From IMG/VR virus record IMGVR_UViG_3300025941_000004: 53,854 nt of DNA; one strand, given 5' to 3'. The position numbers and the translations under genes were made by a program. This document shows, one piece after another, positions 1 through 17,136 of the stretch. The stretch is from a virus. The number at the start of each line of letters is the position of its first letter. Position 1 is the first letter of the stretch. The notes beneath the pieces are model-generated. The model searched no databases, had not been told where the DNA came from, and was given only the letters and a program-made list of their open reading frames with translations.

Positions 1-127
1 GTGGCGTTGCGGATGTCCTTGCAGCCCGGCTCGGGGAAGACGTCGCGGTAGTGGATGGTGTCGTACTTCATGTACCAGCCGCCGGCTGCGTCCTGCAGCA
101 GCACCGGGATGACGCAGCCGAAGCCGA
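1..127. repeat. Circularisation/assembly overlap, copy 1 (identical to 53728-53854)
   Basis: Base-by-base identity of the first and last 127 nt. Both copies lie inside one continuous minus-strand reading frame. Confidence 0.95.
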
Positions 128-572
128 GGGTAAGGCTGGTCTTGGTGGTGGCGAACAGGTTCTGCTGCATGTCGTTGGAGTACTCGTCCGAGCCGATGAT
201 CTTGGAGGTGAGGATGTGGCGGCTGAAGATGCCCTTCAGGTCGTCGTCGTCGAAGCGGCTGATGACCTCGACGTTGGGCGTGTTCTGCACCAGGTTGCGG
301 GCGATGCGGCGGACGAGCCCGGCGGTCTCGCCGCTGCTGATGTTGGGCAGGTCGGCCTTAGGGCTGATGACCTCGGCATCAGCCAGCCGCTCGAGAACGT
401 CGTAGTTCGCAACCCGCAGGTCCATCTCGCGCTTGTAGATCTGCCACATGGACCAGATCTCATCGGCACAGTGAGCGAACCCGCGGTACTCGAGCGTGTC
501 GTCCCGACCTCCGGTCGGGTCGTACTCGATGTACCACTGGGAGAACTCCGTGATGGGCTGGTACCCAACCAT
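1..572 (-). CDS. Portal (head-tail connector)-like protein, 5-prime part (190 codons). It continues across the junction into 53727..52302, 665 aa in total.
   Basis: ATG at 572-570, two nt after the stop of the giant ORF. My translation MVGYQPITEFSQWYIEYDPTGGRDD...GCVIPVLLQDAAGGWYMKYDTIHY runs in frame into track ORF 52302..53831. Size and position directly upstream of the capsid gene fit a portal. Confidence 0.6.
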   Translation of the reverse strand, partial: MVGYQPITEFSQWYIEYDPTGGRDDTLEYRGFAHCADEIWSMWQIYKREMDLRVANYDVLERLADAEVISPKADLPNISSGETAGLVRRIARNLVQNTPNVEVISRFDDDDLKGIFSRHILTSKIIGSDEYSNDMQQNLFATTKTSLTLGFGCVIPVLLQDAAGGWYMKYDTIHYRDVFPEPGCKDIRNA

Positions 573-574
573 GT

Positions 575-3500
575 TCACTGCCACTGCTTCAGCCTTCCTC
601 GCTCGGACCAGACCCGCTCACGGTGGATGTCCTCTCGACGGATGAAAGGACTCGACGTGTTGATGAACGGGATGTCGTCCCCGAACGGGGCCCGCGCACC
701 GGGTAGTGCGTACATCTTGTTGTACTGGCTGTAGCCGCTGCTGCTGTAGCCGCCACCGCCGTAGCTCCGACGCCCGTAGCCGGAGTAGCGGTGGTACGGG
801 AAGCGGCTGTAGCCGTTGCCGTTGGAGTTCGAGTACGGCTGCTGCGGGGTGTACGTCTTGTTCGCAGCGTCGGCGATGGCCTTCTCGATGGACTTCCCGA
901 TCTCCACATCGGTCGGGATGTAGGAGGACTTGTCGACGAGCTGAAGCGCGCGCAGCCCTGTGTTCATACCGTTGACGAGGTCGGTGGTGTTGAGCAGGGA
1001 GTCGTTGCCGGTGGCCGACTGCTCGGAGACGTACGCCTCTTGGTATGGCTTCAGACCAAACGCGCCGAGCACGCCGGCACGCTTGAAGCCGGTGGCCCAC
1101 GGACGACCGTCGGGGCCCATGACGTAGGTCGTGTTCAGCTGCTTGTAGACCACCGACTTGTCATACGAGATGTCCTTGTGCCAGAGGATGTCTCCGATGC
1201 CGAGGGCGTCGGGGTTGGACAGCGGGCCGTACCAGATGCGCTTCATCCGGGACGTGGCCTTCGTCTGGTCCAGGCCCATGTCGACGCCCTCCTGGATCAG
1301 CTCCTCGGTCCACTCCTTCTGGATCTGCACGCGCATGTCTCGTGGGATGAAGATGCCTTGGAGGCTGTCGTCCCCGATCTTCACCGAGCCCTTGGCGAGG
1401 CCCTGGTAGATGCCGCGGGCGCCTGCCTTGGTCAGCACCTCGTGTCCCTGGGCGTCGAGGACCGACAGCGGCTCGAGCATCTCGGGGTGGTAGTTGGCGC
1501 GGGCGATCTTGTCGGCGTTGTTGTAGACGTTCCAGTTCTTCGACGCCATCGCGTCGCCCTTGATCTTGTAGATCAGCTCGTCCAGGGACAGCGCCTCGGT
1601 CCCGCCGGCTGCCTGTGACAGGGAGCGGACGATGGCCTCGGCCCGCTGCTTGGTCATCGGCTGCTTCTCGATCTCCCGCAGCTTCTCCGGCATCTGCGTG
1701 CGGAAGTAGTCGGGCGTACCGCCTGTCATCTTGGCGAACAGCGACGACATGACGGCCAGGGAGAAGCGGTTCTCGGTGAAGGCGTGGAGTGTGGCCTCGC
1801 TGTCGCTGCGAGTCTGGTAGCCCTGCTTGATCTGCCCTGTCTCGGGGTCGATGTAGGACTCCATCGACAGGTTCTGTGGACGCGGGTTGCCTTCGGCGTC
1901 GCCCTGCAGCTCGCGACTGGCGTTGCGCAGCGGCAGTACGAACGGGTCACGGTCGTACTCGTCGCGTGCCACGTAGATCTGGTTGATGAAGGCGTTCTCG
2001 AACAGCATCTTCTCGTAGACGCCGACAGCGTTGGTGAGGAAGCCTGCTGCGATCGGCATGTTGTGGGCTCCACCGAGCTTCGACTGATCGTCTGCCATCT
2101 GCGCGAGCTCGGCTGCGGTCTGGAACGCGTCGTCCCAGGTGTTGGCGTTGATGAGCGGGAACGCTCCGAGCGCGTCCTCGAACCCCCAGCCGACGTTGCG
2201 GAAGTCGCCGGTCTCGTAGAACTTCTCCATCCCCATGATCGGGGAGATGAACTGCTTCAGCACCCAGTTCAGCTGCACCATCGAGCGGGCACCGCCAGGC
2301 GCCTCGTCGGTGGTAACCCGGAACATGGACGCGATGCCCGGCGGCAGCCAGTCGACGAACATGGCGTCGGCGTTGCGGAAGTCGTTCTCGATGCGACGCG
2401 GGTCGTAGATGACCGGTGCTCCCTGCAGAGCAGCCAGGCGCCGGCGCTTCTTGGTCTCGTCGTCCTCACCGGACAGCCCGAGACCACCGGCCATCATGCC
2501 GAAGGCGAAGAGGCCGGTGTGAGTGAGGCTGCCACGGATGAACGAGCGTGACAGGTCGACGCCTTCCAGGACCGACGACATGTCGAAGGTGGCGTCCATC
2601 TCCGGGTCGAACTGGACGCCGCGGATCTTGGCCGATACTCGACCGAACAGCGAGTTCGGTCCCTTCTTGCGTCCCTCGAGGAACATGGCCGTCATGTCCG
2701 AGAGGCCCTGCAGCCCGAGGATCGTGGTCGCCACGTTGACGGCGTAGCCGCTGAACAGCATCGGCATCTTCAGCACCACGTTGCCGAGGAACGCGAGTCC
2801 CATGTTCGGCGACTCCGACAGCGGCTCGTAGATCCCGCGCAACGTGAGCGACAGCGGTGTCGGCTTCAACGAGCGCAGCTGGGCGACGGAGTTCATCCCG
2901 GCCTCGTGTGCCGTCGGGAAGTTCTGCTTCAAGAACTGCGGGCTGGTGGCCATCTCCGCGATCAGCCGGTCGACGCTGAGCTGGTTCATCGTCGGGGTCG
3001 CCATGATGTGCGACAGCGCAGCCTCCATGTAGCGGCGTGCCAGCGTGTTGGCGCGGGTACCCCACGTCGGGTCCTGCACCTTGGTGCCGAGCTTGGCGTA
3101 GTTCTCAAGCCAACGCTCGGCCTTCCCGACACCGGGCTCGTGCGGGCGCAGGAAGAACAGCTCCTTGTAGACCATCGACTTGAAGTCGTTGCGCTGGCCC
3201 ATCACCGTGTACAGCTTGTTCAGCTTGACCAGCTGGTCCGGGCGGTACGCGGCCTCGAGCCCGAGCCGGGACAGGCCGGCGCCGAGGGTGGTGTCGGCCA
3301 GGCGCTCGGTGAGCCGGGCCTGCCGACCGGCGAGGCCCTTGACCTGGCCCTTCCGTCCAACACTTACCGCGGTGGACTGCATGGTGAGCAGGTTTGCGGT
3401 GCGGTCGAGCACGCCTCGGACGAACTGCTCGGGTCCCATCGAGACGTAGAGCTGAGGGTTGAGCAGCGCGGTACCGACTCGGAGGTTGATGAGGGCGCGG

Positions 3501-6500
3501 TACAGGCCGTTGACGGTGGTGGCCCGGTCGGTGAAGGTTCCGCCGTTCTTCAGGAAGTCCTTCATCGAGACGTCCAGTGGCAGCGGGATCCCGTTCTCCT
3601 TGCGCCACTTGCGTCGTGCGTCACGACGCTTGGCGACCTCGGAGACCGGAGCGGCTTTCGCTACGAGCCGGCCCGATACCCGCTGTCCACCGATCAGGTT
3701 GTCGAGGGATGCGCGCTGCAGGTCGAGGGTCACCGGGTCGGTGGCGATCAGCTGCTGCTCGTCGGAGACCGAGACGAACAGCCGGTTCGTGGTCTCGTCC
3801 ATCAGGTTCTGTGTGACCAGCACGTCCATCGACACCGGCAGGTCGAGGAGGTCGCGGGTGGCCGACTGGTAGGTGTGCATGTACCCGTCGAGGGCGAGCA
3901 GGTACAGCGGGTCGAACAGGTGGTCGGAGGTGAACGCGCCACCGAGCGATGTCTTGACCCACTCGTCCCAGGTCCCGGCCTTGATGTTGTTGTCCTCGAG
4001 CCCGGCCTTCGGCTGCCACTGTGGGGACCGGTGCTGGTTGGCACGGAAGATCGCCTGCAGGTCGTGGACGTGGAGCAGCGGCACCTCGGCTCCGACGACA
4101 GGGAGGTAGTTGTGGTTCACGTTCCAGGCGATGTCCTTGACCGCTTCGATCGCTGCGCTGCCGCTGACCTTACCGACGTCGTCGCCGTTGGCGTCGGTGC
4201 CGTGCGGCATCCCGAGTGTCTGCCGGACCCAGTAGTCGACGAGCTTCACCTGCAGCGGGTCGAGCCCGAGGGTCTGCATGACACTGACCGCGGCGGCGTT
4301 GTACTCGGTGCGCTGTGTAGCGGTCCATCCGTTCTCGTCGAGCTGCTTGATCTCGACCCGATCCTGGATGATGGCGTCACGGGCGAGGTCGATGCGCTCG
4401 GCCTCAGCCGGCGACGCCGCCTTCCAGAAGGATCCGGCGCGACGGTCCTCGAACGGGATGCCGGTCAGCATCCGCCACAGCCCGCCGTCCTCGGTGTCGC
4501 GGGCGTGCGGCTCGATGGTGGTGGAGGAGAACAGCTGGGCCTTCGCCACCTCGTAGGAGTGTGCGGTCAGCGCACCGGTCGCCTGGTAGGCGATGGCAGC
4601 AGAGTGCTGGCTGACGTTCGACCGGGTCGCCTCGTCGAACGACATCCCGTTGATGACGGGGTTGTCCCCGGCGGAGTGGGCCTCGGCGAACTGCAGGACG
4701 CCTACCTGGTTCTTCCTCGGGTCGGCGTGGCGGGACTCGAACCGCCACGACTTAGACATCGAGTAGCCGGTGCCGTCCTGGTTCGGGTTGTAGAACTGGG
4801 AGTTGATCCGCTCGTTGATCTCGTTGCGGAGATCGGAGTCCAGCCCGGAGTTGTCGAAGACCTGGGTGAAAAGAATCGGCATCTCGACCGACTTGTGGTC
4901 GATGCTGCTGGTCCTGTCGTTGAAGCCACCGGACTTCAGCACGTCCCCCACACGAGCACCGGGCGTCATCAGGTAGACGATCATCGAGGTGGCGATCTTC
5001 GCCTCCACCGATGCGGGGTCCGCCATGTTGTCGACCCACGACGGGTCGACTGTCTCGGCGTTGGTGAGGGCGAAGCCGTCGAGCTGGCTGCGCAGGGCCT
5101 CGGTGATCCGCTCGGAGTTGAGGATCTCGTCGGCTGCGGTGACCTGGATCCTCGGAGCCTGGGCTGCGATCAGCTTCAGGAAGTCGACGGCTGTGGTGGC
5201 GTCGACACCGAGGAAGGTGGCGACGTCGTCGGTGAAGTCGATGCCGAGGAACTTGAACGCCGACTGGTGGTCGACGATCATCCCGTCGGTCGACTCCTTG
5301 CTCATGGCGTCATCGAGGCTGCCGACGCCGTCGATGTCCCAGTTGGTGAGGAAGCCGTGCTCCTTGCCCTGGTAGGTGGGGAACTGGATGCGGTCGGGAC
5401 GGGCGGTGAGCTCGTACTTCTGCCCGTTCCACTCCAGGACCTTCTTGTCACCGAGAACCTGTAGGTCGATCTCGAGCCGGACGGACAGGCCGTAGTTGGA
5501 GCGCGGGTTGAACTCCACGACGGTCCCTGTGTGGGATGTAGCGTTCGGGTTGCGGGTCGAGGAGAACACGGCCATGTTCGCCGGCTCGTGCTTGGCGGGC
5601 CGGGTGACGCGCTTCTGTGTCATCACCTTGTCCCAGTCCGGCGCCTCGTGTCCGTGCCGGTACAGCAGCACGGTGTCGCCGGGTCCGACCAGCGGGATCA
5701 TGTCCCCGGTGCCGAAGTCGTCTCCGGCCTGGGGCAGGACGGAGCCGGCGTGCAGCTCGAGCCGGTCGATCATCCGGTCGAAGTAGAAGTCGAACTCGGT
5801 ATCGAGGTGGGCACGCTCGGCGGGTGTGAGCTTCTTGCCCTGCTCGGTCTCGGGACCGTGCGCCATGTCACGCAGCATCTGTCGGCCCTCGGGGTCGTTC
5901 TTGAAGCCGAGCACCTGGTTGCGGACCCGTGTGATCTGGGTCTTGTGGATCCGGTCGTCGGTCATCTCGTCGACCGGGACGTTGAACCCGGCCAGGTAGT
6001 TGGTCGGCACCAGGTTCAGGGTCTCCGCGATGGCGTGCAGACGCGGGTTCTTGAAGTCGACCCACAGCGAGCCTTCTTCGACGTTGAGCCCCTGGACGTT
6101 GAAGATCGCCAGGTGCGAACGGGGTGACACGCCACGAGTGGCGGTGAGCGAGGAGATCAGGGCCCGCTGGTTCTGGAACCGGGGTGTGGTGATCGCAGGC
6201 TGGTAGACGTGTCCCGAGCCGGCCATCCTGATGTAGTCGATGGACTCCATGAACTGGGTGGCCTCGACACGCATGTCAGCCTCACCGTCGGTGGCACCGA
6301 GGACGATGGTGGCACCCTGGTCCGCGATGTAGTCCAGACGCTCCCGCATCTTCGCGGCGTTACCACGGAACGAGTCGAGCTCGACGACGACCAGGTCGCC
6401 GGGTGCGATCCGCTTCGCACCCGAGGACGTGGACAGGGTGACCCCGGAGATCAGCCCTGCGTTCGCGTCGGACGCCTGGTCCTCGCGGAAGATCCAGCCG

Positions 6501-9500
6501 GACCGGCTGCCCTTGACCTCGAGTGCCGCCTCGAGCTCGTGGAGCAGCATCTTGGACAGCTCCATGTCCTTGTTCTTGCGGGAGCCGAAGAACGGCAGCC
6601 CGCCTGCCGTCCAGTCCATCGAGATGTTCTCGGCACGCAGCATCAGGTCCGCTGTCTGCAACGCACGACCCAGGTTGGTGCGCGGGTTCCAGCCGCCCTC
6701 ACCGGTCTGTCCGTTGTAGTTGGCGCGGTCGTCCCAGATCTCCTCGCGCTTCTCGGCGAGGTACCTGATCTTCGCCTCGTAGGCGTTGCGGGTCTTCTCG
6801 TCGAGGTAGGCACGGGTCTGCAGCGTCTGCTGCCGGGCACGGTTGGCGATCCTGGTCTCCGGCAACGGCTTCGACTCGCCGTTCAGCCCGTGCTTGAAGT
6901 TCTCCAGCATCTTGGTCGACACGCCCCGGTACGCGGGGACCTGGGACAGGTCGGCGGACAGCACGTCGTCGAAGACGCGGGTGGCACCCTGGGTGCCCTG
7001 CTCACCGAGCATCGAGTTCAGCACCGTGTCGGAGGGCATGTACAGCTTGGCGTCGTCGATGGGGAGCGCGACACCGGGGTTGGCCTGCTGCCAGGCGATC
7101 ACCTGCTCGGCGGTCCACACGAGCCGGTCGCCTGTGCCCTGTGCCTTGCCGACCACCAGGTGCTGAAGCTTCATGTCCTTGTAGACGGCGTTGTAGAACT
7201 CCGGCTCGAGCATCCCCTTCGAGCCCTTCTCGGGGTCACCGAGACCGAGCTGCTTGGTCAGCATCTCCTGGGTCTTCATCCGCAGCACATGGGACAGGTC
7301 GGTGGCCCAGTCGTTCTCGATGGCCTTGCGCTCGGCGTGGGTCATCGTCTCGATGACCTCGATGGCGGAGCGTCCGAGCTTCGAGGCGTCCAGGCCCCAC
7401 GCCTGCATCACCGGGTTGATGGAGCCTTCGGTGAACCAGAGCGTGGCGTTCAGGGACTCGGCCCGATCCGAGTCACGCTTGAAGCTGGTGCCCTCGAAGA
7501 ACAGGTTGTTGTACCAGGTGCGGCCCTTGTCGGACTCCTCCTGGGTCTCGACCGGCTGCATGTCGGGATGGAAGAACTCGATGTCAATGCCGGCCACGTC
7601 ACTCGGGTCGACACCGGAGGCTTCGAGCGCGACCTTCAGCCGGTCCAGGTGGATCTCCTTGTAGCCGGAGGCCACCGCGTTGTCGTTGGTGTGGAAGACG
7701 TGGCCGAGGTTCAGGTCCGAGGCCAGCAGGTCGATGGGTGTCGCGTCGAGGTAGGTTCCCGGCTGGTAGTGGCGCAGCATCACGCGGGCAGCGAAGCGGT
7801 TGTTCAGCTGTGCCAGTGGTCGCGCGACCGCACGGTCACCGGGATGGGTCACCTCGACGTCGTCGAACAGCGACCTGTTCAGGTCGCTGGCCTGCAGCGT
7901 GACCTTCGACAGCAGCTCGGCACCCGGTACCCGGAAGGTGCGCCTGGTGGCAGCCGACTTCGCTGCCTGACGCTTCGGCGCGTTGCCGGTCATCCCGATC
8001 ACCGGCTTTGCGGCGGCGGAGTCGAGCCGCTGGTTGGCCTCGATGGAGGCTCGTGGGATGTCCCCGGTCCACGGGCCGTACCGGAAGTCGGGGTACAGGT
8101 TCAGCTCGATGGTCTTCTTCAGCTCGGTCGGGCTGGGCGGGATGTCACCCTGCAGCCCGGCCCACCTGTGCATGTCCCGACCGGCCAGCAGCAGCGGCTT
8201 CGTCGGGTCCAGCAGCGTGTCGGCCAGGTAGGCGTACGACGTGTCGTAGTAGCGGGTGTTGTCGGGCCTGGTCGCGTCCGGGTACGGGGAGACCGAGATG
8301 CCACCGGAGCCCATCGACACGATGTCGTCGAGGAACACGGTGATGGTGGCACGCGACAGGTGGTTCCACTCCGAAGCCGACAGGTCCACCTGCCCGGAAC
8401 GGGACTTGTCCTCGAGCTGGCCGGACAGCTTCATCATGATCTGGATGGTGGACTGCGACTTCCGGCGGAACTTGTCCGGCGCGGACATGATGTACTGGAT
8501 GATCTCCCGCTGACGGTCGGTCTCGGTCAACGGATCGGAGTGGAAGGAGAACATGTCGACGGCCTGGCCGGCTGGGTCGTCGGAGCGCAGCAGCTCGACA
8601 CGGGCCTCGAACTTTTCAAGGTCGGCACGGGCGCCCAACGTCTCACGCTCGATCTTCTCGACCTCGTGGATGTCCAGGCCGGGCACGAGCTTCGCCTCGA
8701 TCTGGGTGATCTCGTCGTTCATCTCCCCGCGACGCTGTGCCACCAGCTGGTCCAGGGCAAGATCGGTGTAGGCGAACCGCGCGGCTGCCTCCTTGACGTC
8801 CTCACCGGGCCGGGCACCGAAGCCCAGCAGCCCTGCGGTGCGCTGGATCCGGCGTGCCGCATGAACCTCGGACATCACCTGCTTCAAGGTGGCGTCCCCG
8901 GTGCCGTCGGGGACCGAGGCGATGGCCGCGGCGTCCTGCACGATCTTCGCCACCGTGCGGAACGCCCGCTGCGCGGCACGCTCGATCTCGGAGGTGGACA
9001 GCGTGTGGTTCGCACCACTGGTCTCCGCGATCACGATGTCGTTGACGATCCGCTGCACCGAGAAGTGGCCCTTGTGGTTACGGGCGGTGGCTTCCAGCAT
9101 CGCGCAGTAACGCATCGCGGAGTCGTTGTCGATGCTGTTGTCGTGGGCGAACATCTTCTTGTAGTGGTCGCCCTCGAGCAGCGACTTCAGGTCCTTGCCG
9201 ACCAGCATCTGGGTGGTGAGCCTGCCTTCTGGGCCACGCTCCATCACCTGCGGGAACAGCACGGACCTGGCCATCGGCCTGGTGTCGGGGTTGGAGAACA
9301 GCGCCAGCGCCTTGGCCACCGACTCTGCTGTCGGGTTGCCCTCGGAGTCGACCGGCATCTCCCACTCGACCTGGCGTCCGTCGTCGTCCATCGTGACGAC
9401 GCCGTCCTTGGCGAGCTGCGACATGTTGCCGCTGATCGCGTCGAGGTTCACCGCCGTCATGGACGCCTTGAACCGCTCGTAGTTCGTGACGTAGTCGTAG

Positions 9501-12500
9501 GCGTCGCGCTGTGCGTCGAACGCACCAGCCGGGTCCACGTTGTCGGGGTTCTCGCCCTTGGTGTGGGCCTTCGGGTAGAACCCGCGGACCGCTCCGATGA
9601 CCTGGTACATCATCGCCTGCGGCCCGAGCCCCACGTTCATCTCGCGGGAGTTCTTCAGCGACGCCACGAACGCGTCGTAGAGCCTGCGGTCCTCGGTGGT
9701 GGCCGTGACATTGGGTGCGCCGGCGTCGGACTTCAGGACCCGCTCGATGGCGAGGTACACCTGGTTGTCGGACCGCTGGATGTTCTGCTCCTCGACCAGG
9801 TCCTTCTTCAGGTACTGGGCCCCGACCTCGAGGGAGGCGATCGCCTCACGCTGGGTCACGCCCTTCATGCCGGTCGACCAGCCACCGTTCGCCTTGTCCG
9901 CATCGAAGGCGGCGGAGTCGTCGTACCAGCCGACGATGGGTGCCTGGTTGCCACGGATCCCCGGCGTGGTGTTCACCCAGCGGAGGAACTGCTCCAGGTT
10001 CTTGGCGTTCTGGAGCTCGTGCATGAACTTCGTCATCAGCAGCCCGCCGTCTTGCTGCATCTGCGGAGACAGGTCGTACATGATCTTGAACATGCGGCGC
10101 TCGAGCTTGTTGTACCGGCGACCCTGGTGACCGTCCGCATCCTTCTCGGTACGGGCGTGCATGCCCAGTGACTCCCACTGGGCCAGCATCACGTTGCGCC
10201 AGTAGTGCATCTCCGCCTCGTCGGCGTTGGTGATGGTGAACATCTTGTAGACCCAGTTGGCGATGTACAGGTCGTCACCGCGACGCTCGAAGACGGCGTT
10301 CGCGGCGGCGTCCGGGATCAGCGCCATCACCTTCTCCGCGAACGTCGGGTTCTGGTCCAGCATCCGCTGCACCATGTCGAGGGTGAGCTCGTCGACACGA
10401 CGCCCGGACAGCTCGGAGAACTTGAACAGCGCCTCCCGGACATCCTTGTGCGAGTTCTTGAACGCCTCCGAGGCCCGGTAGTGCGCATCGGAGAACTCGC
10501 CGTTCAGGTGGTGCGCGTTGTAGTCGTTGCCGGTAGCGATCTTCTTGTCGAGGGTGATGCGGTTGTGGCCCACCGAGATGATCGAGTCGATGACGCTGCG
10601 GTACGGGGACACGTCGCCGGCTGCGACCTCGGCCACCGAGTACGGCATGTTTGCCGCCGACTCGCGTCCCAGGTAGGCGGCCTCGTTCTTCAGCTTGTAG
10701 TCCTCGGACTTCCGCTCGCCCTCGTCCTTGGCGGTGTAGAACCTGACGTACTGCTCCACACTGATGTGGGGTCCCATCAGTCCGGCTGCGTCACCGATCA
10801 GCGTGAACAGCTGGAACGCTCCGAACACCTCGACGAACGCCCGCTGCGCGTTCAGGCCGGAGCCCTTGACGCCCTGGCCGTCGGGCTTCGTCATCGCCCG
10901 CAGCCGGGCGTGCTTGGCCTGCAGCTCCGGTGAGATCTCGAAGATCGCGTCCTTGGCGACACGGTCCCGGCGCAGCTCCTGCTTCAGCAGCATCTGCGCC
11001 AACGTGATCTCACGTCCGGTGGTCGTCACGTTGCCGTCGGAGTCGATGTCGTAGTCGAGGACCGCGACGTTCGCCACCACCGCCATCGCCTGGGTCTGCG
11101 ACAGCGCCGGATCCAGGTCGGTGGCGTTGTCCGCGAGCGCCTTCAGCTGGGCGATCACCCGTGCCGTGATCTCGTCTACCCCATGCACCCGGTCCAGCTC
11201 GGACTGGGTCGCCATAGCCGACAGCAGCTCGTACTCGGAGGCGAGCGCATACAGCTCGGCACGCTGCGTCGGGTTCGCGGACGACTGCACGGAGGCGGAC
11301 AGGGAGGTGTAGTGGAGCTTCTGGAACTTGCGGAACATCAGGTCGCCGGCCAGCCAGTTCCCGATGGTCTGACCGGTGGTGGCGGACCGTGCGGCCCGGC
11401 GCTCCCGTGCCTCGGACACACGCTTCACCGGGCGGCCCTTCTTCACGGTCCCCGGTGTCGGGCCGAGCATCGCCCGGTAGGAGGCGTAGTCCTCCTGGAA
11501 CGCCTGGAACTGGGCCCGCACCAGCTGGTCCATCCACAGCCACTCGTTGCTCAGGTTGCCCCTGGCGAACGTGTTGATCGGACCGTCGGCCACCTCGAGC
11601 AGCCCGTCCATCAGGACGCTGCGGGCGTCACCGTCACCGGTACGCACCGCAGCGAAGAACTTGGCGAACACCGGATCGAGGATCTCGTCACCGATGATCG
11701 CCTCATACCGGTTGCGGATCGCCTCGGTGACCGACGTCATCGCACCCGTGGCGGCGTTCACCAGCGCCGGCTCCGTGGACGTCAACGCCTCCTGGATGTA
11801 CTGCACCACCCACTTCTCGTACTTCGGGGCCTTCACGTTCACGCTGGTGCCGGCCCCGAGGAAATGCATACCAGCACGAGCCGACACAAACATGTCCTCG
11901 TCCAGCAGCAGCTGGTTCTGGGTCCTGATCTTGTCGCCGTCGTAGTCGCCGCGGATCGCCGGAAGGATCGCGTGGCTGATCTCCAGGACGTTGTCGGAGT
12001 TCGACACCGTCAGCTTCAGTGACGCCTGCGGCACCAGCACCTGGTAGGAGCCCGACTGGTCCTGCGGGTCCCTGGTCACCACCTGGGACACGGCGCGCGC
12101 CAACGCCATCCGCTCCTCGTCGGTGGTCACCGGGACACCGTTCACATCACCGGCACGCCGGTTGAACGCGTCCCGGAGGAACTGGTTCAGCCCCTCGGTC
12201 TCCGCCGCACGGGCCGCAACCGAGGCGTTCGGGTCGTACATGCGACCCACCCGGTCGTCGATCTCGGCACCCAACGCCTGACCCAGCCGGATCATCTCGT
12301 TGATCTGCTTGGTCTGCTGCTGGATCTTCGCCAGGTCGTTCTGCAGCCCCTCGTCGGCGGGCTTCTTGTCGAGGTCGGCCTGCTTCAGCACCTCGTTGTT
12401 CTTCAGCAGCGTCAGCTGCTCGGTGATACCACGCATCCGGTTGCCGAAGTTCCGCATCAGCTGGGCACCGGAGGAGACCACCGCATCGGAGGGGACGCTG

Positions 12501-14770
12501 CCGCGCAGCAGCTGCCCGTTCGCATCGACCTGGCCGGCATCCTCGATCTGGGTGATGACGAACGGCTGGTCGGTGTGCGGCGCGGAGTTCTTCAACGACT
12601 CCGACCTGGACGTGTTGATCGCGTCGACCACCTTGTTCACGCCTGCGACACCTGCGGTGAAGTCCGCAGCCCGGTCGTCGGCGTACTTGGTGAACGCAGC
12701 CTTCGCGGTCTCCCGCTCAAGCTTCCCCATCTGCGCCTTCGCACGCTTCTCCGTCGGCGTCATCGACGCCAACGCCTCATCGGAGAGCACCTCGCCACCG
12801 GTCTGGAAGTAGTGAGCGATCTTCACCTGACCGTCCAGCTTCTCGTCCGCCGTCGGGGAGTGGGCGTTGATGCCCAGACCCATCCCGACACCACCGGCAG
12901 CCCCGTAGAGCCCCGAGTTCACCATGTCCTGCATGCTGCCCACGCCGTGACCGTGGGAGTACGACTCGAGCGCAGACTGGATCACCTCCTCGGTGCCCTC
13001 GCCGAACCCGTTCACCAGCGCCGTGGTGAACCGCCGCTCACCCTGGGCCATCGACTGTGCGGCCCGGTAGAAGTCGTCGGCCTTCAACGCACCCTGGCCG
13101 ACCTCCTTCCCGCGCAACGCGATCACCCGCGTGCTCAGACTCGAGATCGCCTCGGACGGAGCCAGCAGGGAGATCGTGCGGTACCTCTTGCCGACCACCT
13201 GCCCGACATCGTCGGTGATGTACCGGTAGCCCGACTCGATCTCCTCCTTGCCGCCGGCCTCGAGCGCAGCCTTCTGCGCCGCAGTCCTTCCACCGGCCCA
13301 CGTCGGCAGCACATCACGGGCCACCGCCCTACCCGAGACAGCCGTACCGAGAGTGCCTACGGCTCCCGGTGCGGCGCCCATCTGGCTGAGCCCCGCAGCC
13401 TCACGACCAGCCCACGACTTCGTCAACAGCCCTCTGGCGAGACCGATCTGCGCCACATCGACACCGATCTTCGCAATCCCAGCCGCACCCTGGGACGGGC
13501 TGAAGTGCCCCGCCTCGTCCTTGAAGACGTTGTCGAACCCGCCCTTGTTGTAGTCGAACTGGGAGCCACCGGTCAGCGCCAGCTCCGCCGTCTCCCCTGC
13601 GACAGTGGAACCCATCTGTGCCATGTACAGCCCGCGACCGATCGGGGACGCGAACTGCAGCGCACCGTCACCGAGCGCAGCACCGACATCGGCCACCTTC
13701 ACCCACGCCGGCGTCGTCGACTTCCCGGACTTGTCGGTCCGGTAGAACGCCGACTCGCCATCACCCACATCACCCTGGGACCAGTCGTACAGCCCCTGCT
13801 CGGTGTTCTGCAGCGGGGAGATCAACCGGCCCGCGAAACCACCCCACTGCTGGACACCGGTCGAGATCCCGGCACCGGAGCCGTACTGGTCCGTGGACAG
13901 CGCCGTGATCTCGTACGCCCTCGCAGCCTGCTCCGTCAGACTGTCCTTGTTCAGGAACGCGCCGACGCCACCGACCAGCGCACCGATGCCGGCACCCACC
14001 GGGGCACCCACCGCAGCACCCACACCGAAGAACGTCGAGCCAATCGCCGCACCGACACCTGTACCCAACGCCGCGCCACCCGCGGCACCACCCAGGATGA
14101 TCGCCTCATCGGTCGTTCCCTCCTCGAACTGGTGCGCCGTGTCCTTCACGTCCGCGTTGAACTCCATCGCCTTCAGCTGCTGCGGGATCTCGACGTTGTC
14201 CTTCTCCCGCTGCGCCTGAACCTCACGACCCAGGTGCTGCAACGGGTCGGAGGCCGAGAACGCGTGCGCCTTCTGGTCCTTGCTCAACGTCCACGTGGAC
14301 ATCGCAAGGTTCGCGGTGTTCTCGTCGAACCCGCCGTCCTTCTTGTCGTACATGTTGGCGACCTTGTCGCCGTTGACGTAGACATCCCCGTACTTGAACT
14401 GCGTCCCATCGGTACCTGTGTGATCCCAGGTGACGATTCCCGTCGCATGCTCCTGCTCGAAGTACGTGTTCGCCGTCCCCTCCTCCAACGCCTTGTTCCA
14501 CTTGGACATGTAGTCACTCACGAACTGGTTGTCATACCCGTTGTTCGTGCCGTCGAAGTTCGCACCCGTGTACCAGGACTGCGCTGCACCCGTGTACCCG
14601 ATCTCCGGGTCCGTCACCCACGCACCCAGCTTGGACGAGTCGTACATCGGGACGCCGGCGGCCACACCACCACCGGCCCGCGCAGCCTGCTGCATCCCCT
14701 CGGGGGCAGCAGGGTTCTGAGACTGACCCAGCCACGGCTGCAACGCACTCGAGTCGTACTTGCCCACCAC
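575..14770 (-). CDS. Giant virion-operon protein (4,731 aa) with RNA-polymerase-like two-barrel motifs, an N-terminal glycine-zipper segment and C-terminal hydrophobic segments
   Basis: Uninterrupted 14,196-nt ORF in the track. GTG start at 14770 (or 14767) follows GAGGAG. G/C-rich third positions throughout. It sits between the membrane/collagen genes and the portal gene in one co-directional operon. Confidence 0.85.
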   Translation of the reverse strand: MVGKYDSSALQPWLGQSQNPAAPEGMQQAARAGGGVAAGVPMYDSSKLGAWVTDPEIGYTGAAQSWYTGANFDGTNNGYDNQFVSDYMSKWNKALEEGTANTYFEQEHATGIVTWDHTGTDGTQFKYGDVYVNGDKVANMYDKKDGGFDENTANLAMSTWTLSKDQKAHAFSASDPLQHLGREVQAQREKDNVEIPQQLKAMEFNADVKDTAHQFEEGTTDEAIILGGAAGGAALGTGVGAAIGSTFFGVGAAVGAPVGAGIGALVGGVGAFLNKDSLTEQAARAYEITALSTDQYGSGAGISTGVQQWGGFAGRLISPLQNTEQGLYDWSQGDVGDGESAFYRTDKSGKSTTPAWVKVADVGAALGDGALQFASPIGRGLYMAQMGSTVAGETAELALTGGSQFDYNKGGFDNVFKDEAGHFSPSQGAAGIAKIGVDVAQIGLARGLLTKSWAGREAAGLSQMGAAPGAVGTLGTAVSGRAVARDVLPTWAGGRTAAQKAALEAGGKEEIESGYRYITDDVGQVVGKRYRTISLLAPSEAISSLSTRVIALRGKEVGQGALKADDFYRAAQSMAQGERRFTTALVNGFGEGTEEVIQSALESYSHGHGVGSMQDMVNSGLYGAAGGVGMGLGINAHSPTADEKLDGQVKIAHYFQTGGEVLSDEALASMTPTEKRAKAQMGKLERETAKAAFTKYADDRAADFTAGVAGVNKVVDAINTSRSESLKNSAPHTDQPFVITQIEDAGQVDANGQLLRGSVPSDAVVSSGAQLMRNFGNRMRGITEQLTLLKNNEVLKQADLDKKPADEGLQNDLAKIQQQTKQINEMIRLGQALGAEIDDRVGRMYDPNASVAARAAETEGLNQFLRDAFNRRAGDVNGVPVTTDEERMALARAVSQVVTRDPQDQSGSYQVLVPQASLKLTVSNSDNVLEISHAILPAIRGDYDGDKIRTQNQLLLDEDMFVSARAGMHFLGAGTSVNVKAPKYEKWVVQYIQEALTSTEPALVNAATGAMTSVTEAIRNRYEAIIGDEILDPVFAKFFAAVRTGDGDARSVLMDGLLEVADGPINTFARGNLSNEWLWMDQLVRAQFQAFQEDYASYRAMLGPTPGTVKKGRPVKRVSEARERRAARSATTGQTIGNWLAGDLMFRKFQKLHYTSLSASVQSSANPTQRAELYALASEYELLSAMATQSELDRVHGVDEITARVIAQLKALADNATDLDPALSQTQAMAVVANVAVLDYDIDSDGNVTTTGREITLAQMLLKQELRRDRVAKDAIFEISPELQAKHARLRAMTKPDGQGVKGSGLNAQRAFVEVFGAFQLFTLIGDAAGLMGPHISVEQYVRFYTAKDEGERKSEDYKLKNEAAYLGRESAANMPYSVAEVAAGDVSPYRSVIDSIISVGHNRITLDKKIATGNDYNAHHLNGEFSDAHYRASEAFKNSHKDVREALFKFSELSGRRVDELTLDMVQRMLDQNPTFAEKVMALIPDAAANAVFERRGDDLYIANWVYKMFTITNADEAEMHYWRNVMLAQWESLGMHARTEKDADGHQGRRYNKLERRMFKIMYDLSPQMQQDGGLLMTKFMHELQNAKNLEQFLRWVNTTPGIRGNQAPIVGWYDDSAAFDADKANGGWSTGMKGVTQREAIASLEVGAQYLKKDLVEEQNIQRSDNQVYLAIERVLKSDAGAPNVTATTEDRRLYDAFVASLKNSREMNVGLGPQAMMYQVIGAVRGFYPKAHTKGENPDNVDPAGAFDAQRDAYDYVTNYERFKASMTAVNLDAISGNMSQLAKDGVVTMDDDGRQVEWEMPVDSEGNPTAESVAKALALFSNPDTRPMARSVLFPQVMERGPEGRLTTQMLVGKDLKSLLEGDHYKKMFAHDNSIDNDSAMRYCAMLEATARNHKGHFSVQRIVNDIVIAETSGANHTLSTSEIERAAQRAFRTVAKIVQDAAAIASVPDGTGDATLKQVMSEVHAARRIQRTAGLLGFGARPGEDVKEAAARFAYTDLALDQLVAQRRGEMNDEITQIEAKLVPGLDIHEVEKIERETLGARADLEKFEARVELLRSDDPAGQAVDMFSFHSDPLTETDRQREIIQYIMSAPDKFRRKSQSTIQIMMKLSGQLEDKSRSGQVDLSASEWNHLSRATITVFLDDIVSMGSGGISVSPYPDATRPDNTRYYDTSYAYLADTLLDPTKPLLLAGRDMHRWAGLQGDIPPSPTELKKTIELNLYPDFRYGPWTGDIPRASIEANQRLDSAAAKPVIGMTGNAPKRQAAKSAATRRTFRVPGAELLSKVTLQASDLNRSLFDDVEVTHPGDRAVARPLAQLNNRFAARVMLRHYQPGTYLDATPIDLLASDLNLGHVFHTNDNAVASGYKEIHLDRLKVALEASGVDPSDVAGIDIEFFHPDMQPVETQEESDKGRTWYNNLFFEGTSFKRDSDRAESLNATLWFTEGSINPVMQAWGLDASKLGRSAIEVIETMTHAERKAIENDWATDLSHVLRMKTQEMLTKQLGLGDPEKGSKGMLEPEFYNAVYKDMKLQHLVVGKAQGTGDRLVWTAEQVIAWQQANPGVALPIDDAKLYMPSDTVLNSMLGEQGTQGATRVFDDVLSADLSQVPAYRGVSTKMLENFKHGLNGESKPLPETRIANRARQQTLQTRAYLDEKTRNAYEAKIRYLAEKREEIWDDRANYNGQTGEGGWNPRTNLGRALQTADLMLRAENISMDWTAGGLPFFGSRKNKDMELSKMLLHELEAALEVKGSRSGWIFREDQASDANAGLISGVTLSTSSGAKRIAPGDLVVVELDSFRGNAAKMRERLDYIADQGATIVLGATDGEADMRVEATQFMESIDYIRMAGSGHVYQPAITTPRFQNQRALISSLTATRGVSPRSHLAIFNVQGLNVEEGSLWVDFKNPRLHAIAETLNLVPTNYLAGFNVPVDEMTDDRIHKTQITRVRNQVLGFKNDPEGRQMLRDMAHGPETEQGKKLTPAERAHLDTEFDFYFDRMIDRLELHAGSVLPQAGDDFGTGDMIPLVGPGDTVLLYRHGHEAPDWDKVMTQKRVTRPAKHEPANMAVFSSTRNPNATSHTGTVVEFNPRSNYGLSVRLEIDLQVLGDKKVLEWNGQKYELTARPDRIQFPTYQGKEHGFLTNWDIDGVGSLDDAMSKESTDGMIVDHQSAFKFLGIDFTDDVATFLGVDATTAVDFLKLIAAQAPRIQVTAADEILNSERITEALRSQLDGFALTNAETVDPSWVDNMADPASVEAKIATSMIVYLMTPGARVGDVLKSGGFNDRTSSIDHKSVEMPILFTQVFDNSGLDSDLRNEINERINSQFYNPNQDGTGYSMSKSWRFESRHADPRKNQVGVLQFAEAHSAGDNPVINGMSFDEATRSNVSQHSAAIAYQATGALTAHSYEVAKAQLFSSTTIEPHARDTEDGGLWRMLTGIPFEDRRAGSFWKAASPAEAERIDLARDAIIQDRVEIKQLDENGWTATQRTEYNAAAVSVMQTLGLDPLQVKLVDYWVRQTLGMPHGTDANGDDVGKVSGSAAIEAVKDIAWNVNHNYLPVVGAEVPLLHVHDLQAIFRANQHRSPQWQPKAGLEDNNIKAGTWDEWVKTSLGGAFTSDHLFDPLYLLALDGYMHTYQSATRDLLDLPVSMDVLVTQNLMDETTNRLFVSVSDEQQLIATDPVTLDLQRASLDNLIGGQRVSGRLVAKAAPVSEVAKRRDARRKWRKENGIPLPLDVSMKDFLKNGGTFTDRATTVNGLYRALINLRVGTALLNPQLYVSMGPEQFVRGVLDRTANLLTMQSTAVSVGRKGQVKGLAGRQARLTERLADTTLGAGLSRLGLEAAYRPDQLVKLNKLYTVMGQRNDFKSMVYKELFFLRPHEPGVGKAERWLENYAKLGTKVQDPTWGTRANTLARRYMEAALSHIMATPTMNQLSVDRLIAEMATSPQFLKQNFPTAHEAGMNSVAQLRSLKPTPLSLTLRGIYEPLSESPNMGLAFLGNVVLKMPMLFSGYAVNVATTILGLQGLSDMTAMFLEGRKKGPNSLFGRVSAKIRGVQFDPEMDATFDMSSVLEGVDLSRSFIRGSLTHTGLFAFGMMAGGLGLSGEDDETKKRRRLAALQGAPVIYDPRRIENDFRNADAMFVDWLPPGIASMFRVTTDEAPGGARSMVQLNWVLKQFISPIMGMEKFYETGDFRNVGWGFEDALGAFPLINANTWDDAFQTAAELAQMADDQSKLGGAHNMPIAAGFLTNAVGVYEKMLFENAFINQIYVARDEYDRDPFVLPLRNASRELQGDAEGNPRPQNLSMESYIDPETGQIKQGYQTRSDSEATLHAFTENRFSLAVMSSLFAKMTGGTPDYFRTQMPEKLREIEKQPMTKQRAEAIVRSLSQAAGGTEALSLDELIYKIKGDAMASKNWNVYNNADKIARANYHPEMLEPLSVLDAQGHEVLTKAGARGIYQGLAKGSVKIGDDSLQGIFIPRDMRVQIQKEWTEELIQEGVDMGLDQTKATSRMKRIWYGPLSNPDALGIGDILWHKDISYDKSVVYKQLNTTYVMGPDGRPWATGFKRAGVLGAFGLKPYQEAYVSEQSATGNDSLLNTTDLVNGMNTGLRALQLVDKSSYIPTDVEIGKSIEKAIADAANKTYTPQQPYSNSNGNGYSRFPYHRYSGYGRRSYGGGGYSSSGYSQYNKMYALPGARAPFGDDIPFINTSSPFIRREDIHRERVWSERGRLKQWQ
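710..850 (-). other. Tyr/Gly/Ser/Arg-rich low-complexity C-terminal tail of the giant protein
   Basis: Translation NGNGYSRFPYHRYSGYGRRSYGGGGYSSSGYSQYNKMY. The plus strand shows gtagcc/gtagct repeats. Confidence 0.8.
2468..2812 (-). other. C-terminal hydrophobic (possible membrane-inserting) segments of the giant protein
   Basis: GLFAFGMMAGGLGLSG followed by EDDETKKRRR (2468-2515). MGLAFLGNVVLKMPMLFSGYAVNVATTILGLQGL (about 2700-2812). Confidence 0.55.
11891..12088 (-). other. Beta-prime-like barrel segment with DYDGD motif (codons 11933-11947, residues 942-946)
   Basis: VVTRDPQDQSGSYQVLVPQ...NVLEISHAILPAIRGDYDGDKI parallels bacterial beta-prime LNRAPTLHRLGIQAF...[21 protein letters not shown]. 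Reverse complement of 11933-11947 checked as GAC TAC GAC GGC GAC. Confidence 0.6.
13151..13192 (-). other. Beta-subunit-like basic loop GKRYRTISLLAPSE (residues 527-540)
   Basis: Resembles beta-barrel [17 protein letters not shown] (G, basic pair, I-S, then P and E at the same offsets). Short match only. Confidence 0.35.
13952..14101 (-). other. Glycine-zipper / Ala-Gly-rich hydrophobic segment of the giant protein (residues about 224-273)
   Basis: ILGGAAGGAALGTGVGAAIGSTFFGVGAAVGAPVGAGIGALVGGVGAF. Confidence 0.7.
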
Positions 14771-14774
14771 TACT

Positions 14775-14804
14775 CCTCAGGCATCGGGGAAGCTGAGCCT
14801 GAGG
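14775..14804 (-). promoter_or_regulatory. 8-bp GC-rich hairpin overlapping the Shine-Dalgarno of the giant gene
   Basis: mRNA sense reads CCTCAGGC-(14 nt)-GCCTGAGG-AGTA-GTG. The 3-prime arm contains GAGG of the GAGGAG ribosome-binding site. Confidence 0.4.
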
Positions 14805-14811
14805 CTACTCG

Positions 14812-15291
14812 TCAATCAGCCACACAGACACTGACCGTCACATCCGTGTCGACCGGCGAACGCTGATGCAACGCAACAACCGCCACATGGAAGCCGGTCG
14901 GACAGATCGGACCAGCCGGACCCGGTATCCCCTGCTCACCGGTTCTACCGGTGCGACCGGGCCGTCCCGGCTTCCCCCTGAAGCCAGGACGACCCTGACG
15001 ACCCGCTGGTCCAGGCGCCCCCCGCACGCCTGGGCTACCGTTGACGCCGTCCACACCGTCGCGACCCGGATTCCCCGTACGGCCAACGCGACCCTGCGGA
15101 CCCTGGGGACCCTGCCGGCCACGCTCCCCCTGCTGGCCGGCAGGCCCTTGCGGTCCCGGTACTGAGACGACCGTAGTCACCTTCTGTGACGCAGGTTCAG
15201 AGGCTTCAGTCCCGACCATCGCAGCACCGAACGCCAAGACTGCCAGGGCACCGGCTGCGATGTAGCCGAACGGGGAACGCGTGAGGATCAC
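14812..15291 (-). CDS. Membrane-anchored collagen-like protein (159 aa)
   Basis: N-terminal hydrophobic helix FGYIAAGALAVLAFGAAMV, then about 30 G-X-Y triplets (GPQGPAGQQGERGRQGPQGPQGRVGRTGNPGRDG...). GTGA start/stop overlap with the upstream gene. Confidence 0.8.
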   Translation of the reverse strand: MILTRSPFGYIAAGALAVLAFGAAMVGTEASEPASQKVTTVVSVPGPQGPAGQQGERGRQGPQGPQGRVGRTGNPGRDGVDGVNGSPGVRGAPGPAGRQGRPGFRGKPGRPGRTGRTGEQGIPGPAGPICPTGFHVAVVALHQRSPVDTDVTVSVCVAD

Positions 15292-15557
15292 TTCTCGTCC
15301 TCCTTCTTGTGCTTCGCATCCGAGTTGTAGTCCGTACGCCCAGCCAGGAAGCCAGCCAGCAACCCGATCAGCGTGGACAGCACCTCGGTGATCTGCCTCG
15401 ACGCAGACGAGGTGTCCACACTCGGATTCACGATCTCCACCACCACGATCGTGCCCATCGTGCCCACCACCATCAGGCAGATCGTCACAGCGATCATCAG
15501 CACCATCAGGTCACCCGTGCTGCGATCCCTCAACCTGGGACGATCCCGACGATCCAT
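15288..15557 (-). CDS. Small membrane protein with two predicted TMDs (89 aa), first gene of the virion operon
   Basis: ATG at 15557 preceded by GGGAGG. Hydrophobic LMVLMIAVTICLMVVGTMGTIVVV and VLSTLIGLLAGFLAG. Confidence 0.7.
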   Translation of the reverse strand: MDRRDRPRLRDRSTGDLMVLMIAVTICLMVVGTMGTIVVVEIVNPSVDTSSASRQITEVLSTLIGLLAGFLAGRTDYNSDAKHKKEDEK

Positions 15558-15740
15558 GCGCTCAGCCTCCCACCTACACGGCTCTCACGGCTCACCCGCA
15601 GGAGCCCAGGCCGTCACAAGGCTTCCAGCCCTCTCCTGGTGTCGCACAAGCGTCGAAGCTCGAAGGCGATTCCGTCGAAACCCCAAACTCCGTGCATCTG
15701 GAGCTGCATCTGGAACACGGGAAAAGTTTGCGGGAGGTTC

Positions 15741-15900
15741 CAATATAAACAACATAAACAAAAGAAACAATCTATTCCCCCTTATTATATATATATATGG
15801 GTATTAGGATCCATTTGGAATGTAATAAGTGAAACATTTGTTTCGTTTGGTTGATTTCTTTTTGGTTGGTTATCACAGTGGTAACTGATGTCTCATGTGA
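15741..15900. promoter_or_regulatory. AT-rich island with phased A-tracts and a (TA)6 run. Candidate divergent promoter region, DNA-unwinding element or genome end.
   Basis: My hand count gives 48 G+C in 160 nt (about 30%) in an otherwise GC-rich genome. ATAAACAA-like units at 15744, 15754 and 15764 (10-bp phase). TATATATATATAT at 15786-15798. Confidence 0.5.
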
Positions 15901-15913
15901 CTTAGGAGTCAAC

Positions 15914-16147
15914 ATGGATTTTGGAGATGCGCTCAAGGCTAGCGTTATCGCTGGCATGGATCCCATGAATGGGATGATGCGCTCGCTGATGGCGTCGACT
16001 ATTCGTGAGAAGTCGGTTGTTGTCGATGGTCAGGTCATGGACAACATGGATCGGTTGCGTAAGGCAATCGAGGAGATGAAGTCTGCTGGTTCGGACCAGA
16101 AGATCATCGACGCTTATCAGCGTATGCTGGACAACTACACGAAGTAG
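15914..16147 (+). CDS. Hypothetical Met-rich small protein (77 aa), low-GC gene
   Basis: AGGAG at 15904-15908, ATG at 15914. Translation MDFGDALKASVIAGMDPMNGMMRSLMAS... Confidence 0.6.
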   Translation: MDFGDALKASVIAGMDPMNGMMRSLMASTIREKSVVVDGQVMDNMDRLRKAIEEMKSAGSDQKIIDAYQRMLDNYTK

Positions 16148-16161
16148 TTGGGATCGAGTGT

Positions 16162-17128: not shown

Positions 17129-17136
17129 CACCACTT

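Follow-up and report, generated by a model that had tools for sequence, protein, structure and literature searches.

A giant phage gene that probably encodes a very divergent two-barrel RNA polymerase

What does a phage with a genome of about 54 kb do with a single gene that fills a quarter of it? The question is raised by the window analysed here, the whole 53,854-nucleotide stretch of viral DNA held as IMG/VR virus record IMGVR_UViG_3300025941_000004, in which one open reading frame (ORF) of 4,731 codons lies on the minus strand directly upstream of the portal gene. Giant genes of this kind have been noted before: those of phage Burro and of the cluster EK phages exceed 13 kb and 4,400 residues, surpass all other actinobacteriophage genes in size, and show few informative domains and no similarity to the N4 virion RNA polymerase (Jacobs-Sera et al. 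2020, PMC7302621), and a gene of more than 13 kb with unassigned function has likewise been described for EK2 phages (PMC8281081). Our analysis suggests that the giant protein is probably a virion protein with a very divergent two-barrel (beta'/beta) DNA-dependent RNA polymerase (RNAP) core, working by the mechanism set out below. One reading frame most likely holds, as modelled, both barrels, the beta' type first and the beta type after it, with about 2,070 residues between them.

575..14770, minus strand: the giant gene, 14,196 nt and 4,731 amino acid (aa) codons with zero internal stops; predicted product 518.7 kDa, pI 5.4.

The first point to settle is whether so long a frame is real. High-GC DNA yields long spurious ORFs, and antisense ORFs of 1,320, 852 and 763 aa are indeed found inside the giant gene, so that a misassembly or a chance open frame might be suspected. 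Antisense ORFs of this kind commonly arise where third positions are rich in GC. The GC content at third codon positions (GC3) of the giant ORF is 0.84-0.94 in each 300-codon window and about 0.9 overall, the probability of 4,731 stop-free codons by chance at the same base composition is about 1e-54, and collinear full-length homologues occur in more than 50 isolated phages and 117 metagenomic clusters. Because the 117 independent full-length homologues span 4,170-4,890 aa, a misassembly of several genes, the event that the first-pass annotation had named as the danger to its reading, is very unlikely, and an artefact of either kind, to which we give almost no credence, is refuted for practical purposes. 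The ORF starts with GTG with GAGGAG just 5' of it, and this start is taken to be correct because residues 13-28, which precede the next in-frame ATG, are kept in homologues. The protein contains a single cysteine (C1889), and the exact protein has no record in public assemblies. Window positions 1-127 and 53728-53854 are an exact direct repeat; because the first and last 127 nt are identical, the repeat is an overlap left by the assembly, and the genome is circular or circularly permuted, with a true length of 53,727 bp, of which the giant gene takes up 26.4%. The stop-free frame, its G/C-rich third positions and its share of about a quarter of the genome had all been described in the first-pass annotation, and the measurements agree.

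Kinship of the gene is visible at the protein level only, since a megablast search against 50,697 phage records found no nucleotide match. The protein is 29-34% identical, end to end, to those of Burro, Araxxi and DoTi (genus Burrovirus) and of Arthrobacter phage MissAmericana, with 98-100% query coverage and E = 0 by tblastn, and 20-26% identical to those of the cluster EK phages Akoni, Phedro and TinyTimothy; the named members are Burro gp27, Araxxi gp27, MissAmericana gp30 and EK gp28/31 (TinyTimothy gp28, Akoni gp31; Eekayvirinae). Gene order and the ~54-kb architecture, with two divergent blocks and a giant gene overlapping the portal gene, are common to these relatives, and the Burro and EK giant genes fall in the same size class and, as here, lie directly upstream of the portal gene. 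The window copy is the longest compared (4,731 aa versus 4,434-4,494 aa in six aligned isolated relatives) and has in front of it two small membrane-protein genes that the Burro/EK relatives lack. In its other core proteins the phage is much closer to the Burro/MissAmericana group (capsid 79%, terminase 71%, nozzle 53-57%, DNA polymerase I 46%), so the genome is that of a new, fairly distant relative of this group whose giant gene, judged by these identities, appears to evolve faster than the virion core. The kinship with ~54-kb Microbacterium podoviruses, which the first-pass annotation had suggested by way of cluster EK, is thus correct by full-length protein homology; Burro/Araxxi and MissAmericana stand nearer than EK proper.

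The extent of the family became visible only when 1.84 billion cluster representatives were scanned exhaustively with HMMER, as a word-indexed protein search found two truncated relatives only. The scan gave 167 family clusters, for which 149 sequences were retrieved; 117 of these are full length, each in one ORF and less than 50% identical to one another, so that the family is both large and varied in metagenomes. We considered whether the short members might be natural gene splits and rejected this. In the one contig examined, a 27.9-kb metagenomic contig (L007), the homologue at 6910-20365 is broken into more than 15 small ORFs in the manner typical of long-read indel errors, and error-broken contigs of this sort inflate the number of 'short' family members.

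The beta'-like half of the proposed core occupies the following positions.

11471..12553, minus strand: core of the beta'-like module, aa 740-1100, modelled with high confidence and with fold matches to beta'.
11921..12085, minus strand: signature block of the candidate beta'-type double-psi beta-barrel (DPBB-A), aa 896-950, TRDPQDQSGSYQVLVPQ...ISHAILPAIRGDYDGDKIR, with R900, P902 and S908 conserved.
11933..11947, minus strand: DYDGD, aa 942-946, candidate Mg2+-binding triad.

Seven phage proteins with a mutual identity of 20-34% all keep R900, P902, G907, S908, D942, D944, G945 and D946 unchanged. In an alignment of 116 sequences R900, P902, D942, D944, G945 and D946 reach 100% and S908 97%, and each of the 117 full-length representatives has, at the corresponding site, the D-x-D-G-D that closes the R-x-P...S...D-x-D-G-D block (aa 900-946). 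Residues 416-472 of E. coli beta', in the beta' double-psi beta-barrel, show a matching pattern (...NRAPTLHRLGIQAF...NADFDGDQM...), and hhalign placed the family block in register with this segment (E 0.14). When two family profiles were searched against the sequences of the PDB, the same block matched the non-virion RNAP of phage phiKZ (7OGP_A, E 0.15) and the beta' of phage AR9 (7S00_d, E 0.5; also 7S01_d), with E values from 0.15 to 2.8; the phiKZ and AR9 beta' chains were the only natural polymerases in those lists. An AlphaFold2 (AF2) model of aa 481-1480, built without templates, had a mean predicted local distance difference test score (pLDDT) of 74.6 and exceeded 90 over aa 740-1100. 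Foldseek comparison of this model with the PDB returned RNAP beta'-type chains exclusively in the top 50 (E 1.6e-4 to 2.6e-3, probability 0.93-1.00), from Thermus, E. coli, Mycobacterium, Streptomyces, cyanobacteria and others. On the motifs, the alignments and the model, a beta'-type double-psi beta-barrel (DPBB) with its DxDxD loop is therefore placed at aa ~880-960, inside a beta'-like module of about aa 740-1100 or more, and long helices are predicted to follow it.

A beta-type barrel upstream of DPBB-A, the position that it holds in gp66, QDE-1 and gp96, was looked for and dropped, as aa 481-730 are helical in the AF2 model. The candidate second half lies far downstream instead.

4661..6523, minus strand: beta-like module, aa 2750-3370, the confident part of the second AF2 model.
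5291..5725, minus strand: candidate beta-type barrel (DPBB-B), aa 3016-3160, GDMIPL...LYRHG...TGTVVEF...LQVLGDKKVLEWNGQKYELTARP, proposed from conservation and element order.
5444-5446, minus strand: K3109.
5417-5419, minus strand: K3118.

In the 116-sequence alignment G3022, R3038, G3040, K3109, K3118 and K3158 are conserved at 96-99%. The elements of this region are arranged along the chain as they are in E. coli beta 880-1081: a first strand, GDMIPL...LYRHG, corresponding to GDILVGKVTPKG at beta residue 880 and to beta GDILVGK; a second strand, TGTVVEF, corresponding to SGTVIDV at 925; and a lysine motif, LQVLGDKKVLEWNGQKYELTARP, corresponding to beta 1060-1081. The AF2 model of aa 2651-3450 had a pLDDT of 74.8 and a predicted template modelling score (pTM) of 0.57, with a beta-rich core at 83-94. 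Ranks 1-43 of its Foldseek search of the PDB were held exclusively by second-largest RNAP subunits, among them bacterial beta, Pol II Rpb2, Pol I A135, Pol IV, a plastid subunit, archaeal B and the African swine fever virus subunit, with E values of 5.8e-3 and weaker and probabilities of at most 0.8. Searched against a viral library, the same model found its own family first (Burro 2.5e-27, TinyTimothy 6.9e-18), followed by RNAP subunits of mimivirus (1.3e-3), jumbo phage Noxifer (3.6e-3), vaccinia and pithovirus. A beta-type DPBB with conserved lysines at aa ~3016-3135 is thus suggested at the level of the predicted fold only.

Because one segment matches beta' only, the other matches beta only, and both carry invariant residues of catalytic type, the most reasonable explanation is that both halves of an RNAP reside in one protein. 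We consider it very likely that the two modules are true homologues of RNAP subunits. The further steps, that the two barrels form a joint active site, and that the protein catalyses RNA synthesis with promoter specificity, are proposals that go beyond the fold similarity.

Several observations weigh against this interpretation. Searches of the whole giant protein in Pfam, PHROGs and NCBIfam gave no polymerase match, returning a sub-threshold DUF6861 match and a weak PHROG match, both on a Gly-rich segment described below; Pfam searches of ten divergent family members gave nothing beyond the same Gly-zipper-type match, and phmmer found no match among PDB sequences. None of the sequence-profile matches of the beta' block is significant (best E 0.12-0.5), and for the candidate DPBB-B neither a profile search of PDB sequences nor hhalign against E. 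coli beta gave support. The alignments used as AF2 input were shallow (27 rows for the first model and 17 for the second), the two barrels were modelled separately, and the E values given by Foldseek (~1e-4 for beta', ~6e-3 for beta) are modest. The global root-mean-square deviation is large, and the TM-scores of 0.13-0.19 are low, as is to be expected of huge multidomain chains with no more than a core in common. In the aa 481-1480 model neither the bridge helix nor the trigger loop was identified, and the stretch at the invariant R1147 is of low confidence (pLDDT ~40-50). A 2,000-residue spacer and a reversed order of the barrels are without precedent. Among the intergenic sequences no promoter-like repeated motif was found, and only an iteron-like 11-mer turned up. 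Finally, virion association is known for the Burro homologue only, and packaging and ejection of the window phage's own protein are proposals.

Could the protein instead be mainly structural, an internal-core, ejectosome or tape-measure-like protein in which the RNAP folds are vestigial, non-catalytic or spurious? No match exists for about 3,500 of the 4,731 residues, ejection proteins and tape measures typically have hydrophobic and Gly-rich segments and a low-complexity tail such as those seen here, the sequence-profile evidence lies below significance, and some records label homologues accordingly. Such a protein would nevertheless have to account for a D-x-D-G-D retained in 117 of 117 members and for lysines conserved at 96-99% despite an overall identity of 20-30%, a pattern that indicates retained catalysis, and for two separate segments that match two different RNAP subunits with complete specificity. 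A tape measure accounts for ~1.5 Å of tail per residue, and 4,731 residues would imply a tail of ~700 nm. The cluster EK phages and Burro are podoviruses (PMC7302621), the tail of EK2 phage Akoni is less than 10 nm (PMC8281081) and leaves nothing to measure, and the giant gene lies upstream of the portal gene and away from the tail genes. For these reasons, and with no tape-measure family match in Pfam or PHROGs, we rejected an assignment to the tail tape measure proteins and regard the tape-measure annotation as untenable; a mainly structural role in the wider sense is unlikely. Homologues are labelled 'tail length tape measure protein' or 'tape measure protein' in records NC_048801.1, NC_048860.1 and PQ184795.1 (locus L003, 18976-32280).

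A two-barrel enzyme with a different activity, namely a primase-like or QDE-1-like RNA-dependent RNA polymerase (RdRP) or a PolD-like DNA polymerase, is a further alternative. D-[aromatic]-D-G-D is a motif of QDE-1-type RdRPs as well. Two-barrel folds occur in PolD (PMC7281927), and QDE-1 has dual DNA-dependent and RNA-dependent RNA polymerase activity (PMC9508822). In both PDB fold searches, however, QDE-1 and PolD were absent from the top 50, where the matches were DNA-dependent RNAP subunits, and the phage already encodes DNA polymerase I, a primase/polymerase and helicases. We therefore consider a different polymerase activity very improbable. No other RNAP-like gene was found elsewhere in the genome.

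A variant of the RNAP reading, rather than its opposite, is that the giant protein is a polyprotein-like precursor cut at head maturation into beta'-like, beta-like and other internal or ejection proteins, giving a multisubunit virion RNAP like that of phiKZ. The Burro giant protein is virion-associated, as indicated by a band of ~250 kDa that exceeds any other predicted product, against ~490 kDa predicted for the giant protein itself (PMC7302621). The least conserved stretch of the family lies mid-protein, at aa 1900-2100, where a cut would yield pieces of 216 and 303 kDa; cleavage into beta'- and beta-containing pieces is attractive because the mass of the Burro band is roughly half of that predicted and conservation is lowest in the middle. 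The nearest sequence and fold matches, moreover, come from multisubunit RNAPs, jumbo-phage enzymes among them, and not from QDE-1, gp66 or gp96. Set against this, neither a protease gene nor a cleavage motif was identified, one gel band is weak evidence, all 117 full-length members keep the protein in a single ORF, and the seemingly split versions are frameshift-error contigs. Processing of this kind seems to us possible but, on balance, somewhat doubtful. The first-pass annotation had everything fused in one chain, which stands for the ORF; that the chain also works uncleaved is less certain, and the Burro band suggests processing.

Outside the two RNAP-like modules, several segments of the giant protein are set apart by composition or conservation. 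Hydropathy is given as the Kyte-Doolittle score (KD).

14336..14593, minus strand: conserved N-terminal domain, aa 60-145, with G69, G111, G128, D129, G134 and N139 at 98-100% in 116 sequences.
13952..14101, minus strand: Gly/Ala-rich hydrophobic helix pair ('glycine zipper'), aa 224-273, KD 1.48-1.73, conserved in the family.
12851..13183, minus strand: helical region, aa 530-640, with P538-S539-E540, E591, E594, E595, Q598, G623, G627 and G629 strictly invariant.
8471..9073, minus strand: least conserved, gap-rich stretch in the alignments, aa 1900-2100, a candidate linker or processing region between a 216-kDa N-terminal half and a 303-kDa C-terminal half.
2468..2812, minus strand: weakly hydrophobic conserved segments, aa 3987-4101, KD 1.2-1.35, with GEDDETKKRRR after them.
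2435..2470, minus strand: acidic-then-basic patch seen in the alignments, GEDDETKKRRRL, aa 4101-4112.
710..850, minus strand: Tyr/Gly/Ser/Arg-rich low-complexity tail, aa 4641-4687, read from the sequence.
578..670, minus strand: basic peptide at the extreme C terminus, ...IRRExIxRERvWSERGRLKQWQ, aa 4701-4731, where conservation is highest (75% mean identity).

The glycine zipper gives a weak match to Pfam DUF6861 (E 6e-6, below the curated cutoff), is directly followed by the invariant N274 and D276, and may serve as a membrane-insertion element. In the C-terminal patch G4101, D4103 and E4105 are invariant and R4109 invariant or nearly so in alignments of seven and ten sequences. The C-terminal basic peptide is a candidate packaging or portal-interaction signal. 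Three of these features had been predicted in the first-pass annotation. Its glycine zipper, at 13952-14101, is strongly hydrophobic (KD ~1.7), and its Tyr/Gly/Ser/Arg-rich tail lies exactly where it was placed; its C-terminal hydrophobic segments with a basic patch (2468-2812) are present too, with hydrophobicity that proved weak and a patch that is acidic before it is basic. Its proposals that the protein spans the host envelope and delivers a polymerase with the DNA stay tentative; only the N-terminal Gly-zipper pair is convincingly membrane-like. The region at aa 530-640, helical in the AF2 model, stands apart in that its invariance equals that of the catalytic aspartates and is explained by neither the polymerase nor the membrane reading.

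Taken together with the proposed RNAP core, these features suggest a sequence of events. The protein would be made late from the structural block, translationally coupled to the portal gene, and packed inside the capsid, to which the invariant basic peptide at the C terminus may target it; at this step it might be cleaved near the poorly conserved middle into two pieces of ~220-300 kDa. At infection it would be expelled through the short tail, and the N-terminal Gly-zipper helices, perhaps with the C-terminal hydrophobic region, would engage the membrane. The two barrels would then join as one active site and transcribe the first phage genes without the host polymerase, and the protein may also help to pull the DNA in.

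The genes on either side are as follows.

1..584 and on across the circular junction to 52302, minus strand: portal gene, its 5' part at 1..584, with GTG at 584; 669 aa.
14812-15291, minus strand: small upstream gene, 159 aa, with an N-terminal transmembrane segment and collagen G-X-Y repeats.
15288-15557, minus strand: small upstream gene, 89 aa, with one or two transmembrane segments.

The portal start overlaps the giant gene stop by 10 nt, and the portal gene is 56-61% identical to the portals of Araxxi and MissAmericana; it appears frameshifted or split when the window is read linearly because of the terminal 127-nt duplication. The 159-aa protein has ~28 collagen G-X-Y triplets after its transmembrane helix (Pfam PF01391, E 1.6e-15) and no counterpart in Araxxi or MissAmericana by blastp, and the GC3 of its gene is only 0.64. 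The transmembrane segments and the portal identity agree with the flanking genes named in the first-pass annotation, two membrane-protein genes and the portal; its placement of the giant gene at the head of the virion operon holds for the block, in which the gene is third and not strictly first.

Between the divergent gene blocks, window positions 15558-18687 (~3.1 kb) contain almost no ORF with coding-type GC3, and relatives have an unannotated gap of 0.8-0.9 kb at this position. Over 15701-15900 its GC content drops to 0.35, and a (TA)n run lies at 15786; the two arms of an imperfect inverted repeat of 75 nt are at 16497-16571 and 16641-16715, and near-perfect hairpins at 18233-18276 and 18607-18642. 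The stretch could hold an origin, early promoters or small RNAs. The 11-mer GTGTAGACACC, with one mismatch allowed, occurs 17 times against 1.1 expected, nearly always in two clusters at 16493-16716 and 38820-39056; the second is a pair of inverted tandem arrays with 12-nt spacing that flank an AT-rich centre at ~38940-38970. Exact copies are absent from six loci (L001-L006). In appearance the arrays are closer to origin iterons or to an operator than to a set of promoters. Elsewhere, the nozzle homologue (40294-43833, minus strand) has 1,179 aa versus 794 aa in Araxxi and MissAmericana, its BLAST match falling into two parts that imply an insertion of ~385 aa, with a weak CBM_4_9 match at aa 278-368. 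The gene at 22953-23678 (plus strand) gives a Pfam match to an Enc34-type single-stranded DNA-binding domain (E 1.4e-6, above the curated cutoff) and is conserved in Araxxi and MissAmericana, where it is labelled 'hypothetical'.

The giant gene was already known, and it is the polymerase assignment and the reversed, widely spaced barrels that appear to be new; no prior RNAP assignment of the EK/Burro giant gene was found in the literature or supplementary files searched, a search from which subscription-only papers were excluded. The Burro/EK giant proteins may constitute an unrecognised major lineage of two-barrel RNAPs, a permuted fusion that is nearer to the multisubunit than to the single-chain enzymes, that has about 2,000 residues of unassigned function between its barrels and that a 54-kb podovirus would package and inject so that transcription can begin; we see the chances of this broader proposal as evenly balanced. 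If it is true, the protein would be the largest viral polymerase polypeptide known and the first virion RNAP to be reported from actinobacterial phages, a Gram-positive, actinobacterial addition to the virion-delivered RNAPs of N4, crAss-like phages, phiKZ-like phages and P23-45. It would give a role to the largest gene of the actinobacteriophages, noted since 2020, with specific residues (D942, D944, D946, K3109 and K3118) to address, and would correct the 'tape measure protein' label that is spreading in public records. It would also predict rifampicin-resistant early transcription in Microbacterium foliorum, a host that is safe for classroom use and has dozens of isolated phages. If the order and the spacer are real, they would widen the known builds of the universal two-barrel transcription enzyme and bear on whether single-chain phage enzymes derive from or predate multisubunit ones.

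How does such a protein compare with known systems? In concept it resembles N4 gp50 and T7 gp14/15/16, in that very large proteins travel inside a podovirus particle and are then released into the cell, and that of N4 is a polymerase which transcribes the early genes (PMC13434306). The enzymes themselves differ: N4 gp50 is a T7-like single-subunit, right-hand polymerase, whereas the giant protein gives two-barrel fold matches. No T7-like polymerase domain was found in it by Pfam, NCBIfam or PDB sequence searches, and neither a lytic transglycosylase nor another T7 gp16-type domain was detected. That the polymerase core is unlike N4 gp50 had been proposed in the first-pass annotation and is supported by the invariant motifs and the two independent fold searches; the second barrel, reversed in order and ~2,070 residues downstream, had been missed.

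Closer precedents for giant virion proteins that carry two-barrel RNAPs are gp66 of phi14:2, a crAss-like phage, and gp96 of the Thermus phage P23-45. As is proposed for the window protein, gp66 is a giant virion-packaged single chain with both barrels and a DxDxD motif, most of which is without recognisable homologues. It has 2,180 aa, however, and runs B-then-A with a connector of ~140 residues, whereas the window protein would run A-then-B with ~2,070 residues between; the single-chain arrangement of phage and RNA interference enzymes (DPBB-B, a connector of at most ~140 aa, DPBB-A) is thus not that of the giant protein. Neither gp66 nor QDE-1 is among its top fold matches, and the host phylum of phi14:2 differs from that of the window phage. 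The ~5,000-residue virion protein gp96 is similar in size and has a DFDGD motif and membrane segments, and its polymerase, too, was found through a DxDxD search in a giant 'structural' protein. P23-45, however, is a siphovirus with an 800-nm tail, whereas the relatives of the window phage are podoviruses, and gp96 holds a complete RNAP, B-then-A and without a clamp, in its first ~1,100 residues, the remainder being a real tape measure with a metallopeptidase domain, whereas the barrels of the window protein would be split by a 2,000-residue spacer.

By sequence and fold the nearest matches lie among multisubunit enzymes, jumbo-phage RNAPs included. phiKZ and AR9 provide the best sequence-profile matches of the DPBB-A block and Noxifer is among the top viral fold matches of the beta-like module, and phages of the phiKZ type package an RNAP in the virion (PMC7598289). 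Jumbo-phage RNAPs are made as separate, split beta and beta' products in genomes of more than 200 kb, whereas the window phage would carry both halves in one ORF of a 54-kb, podovirus-type genome.

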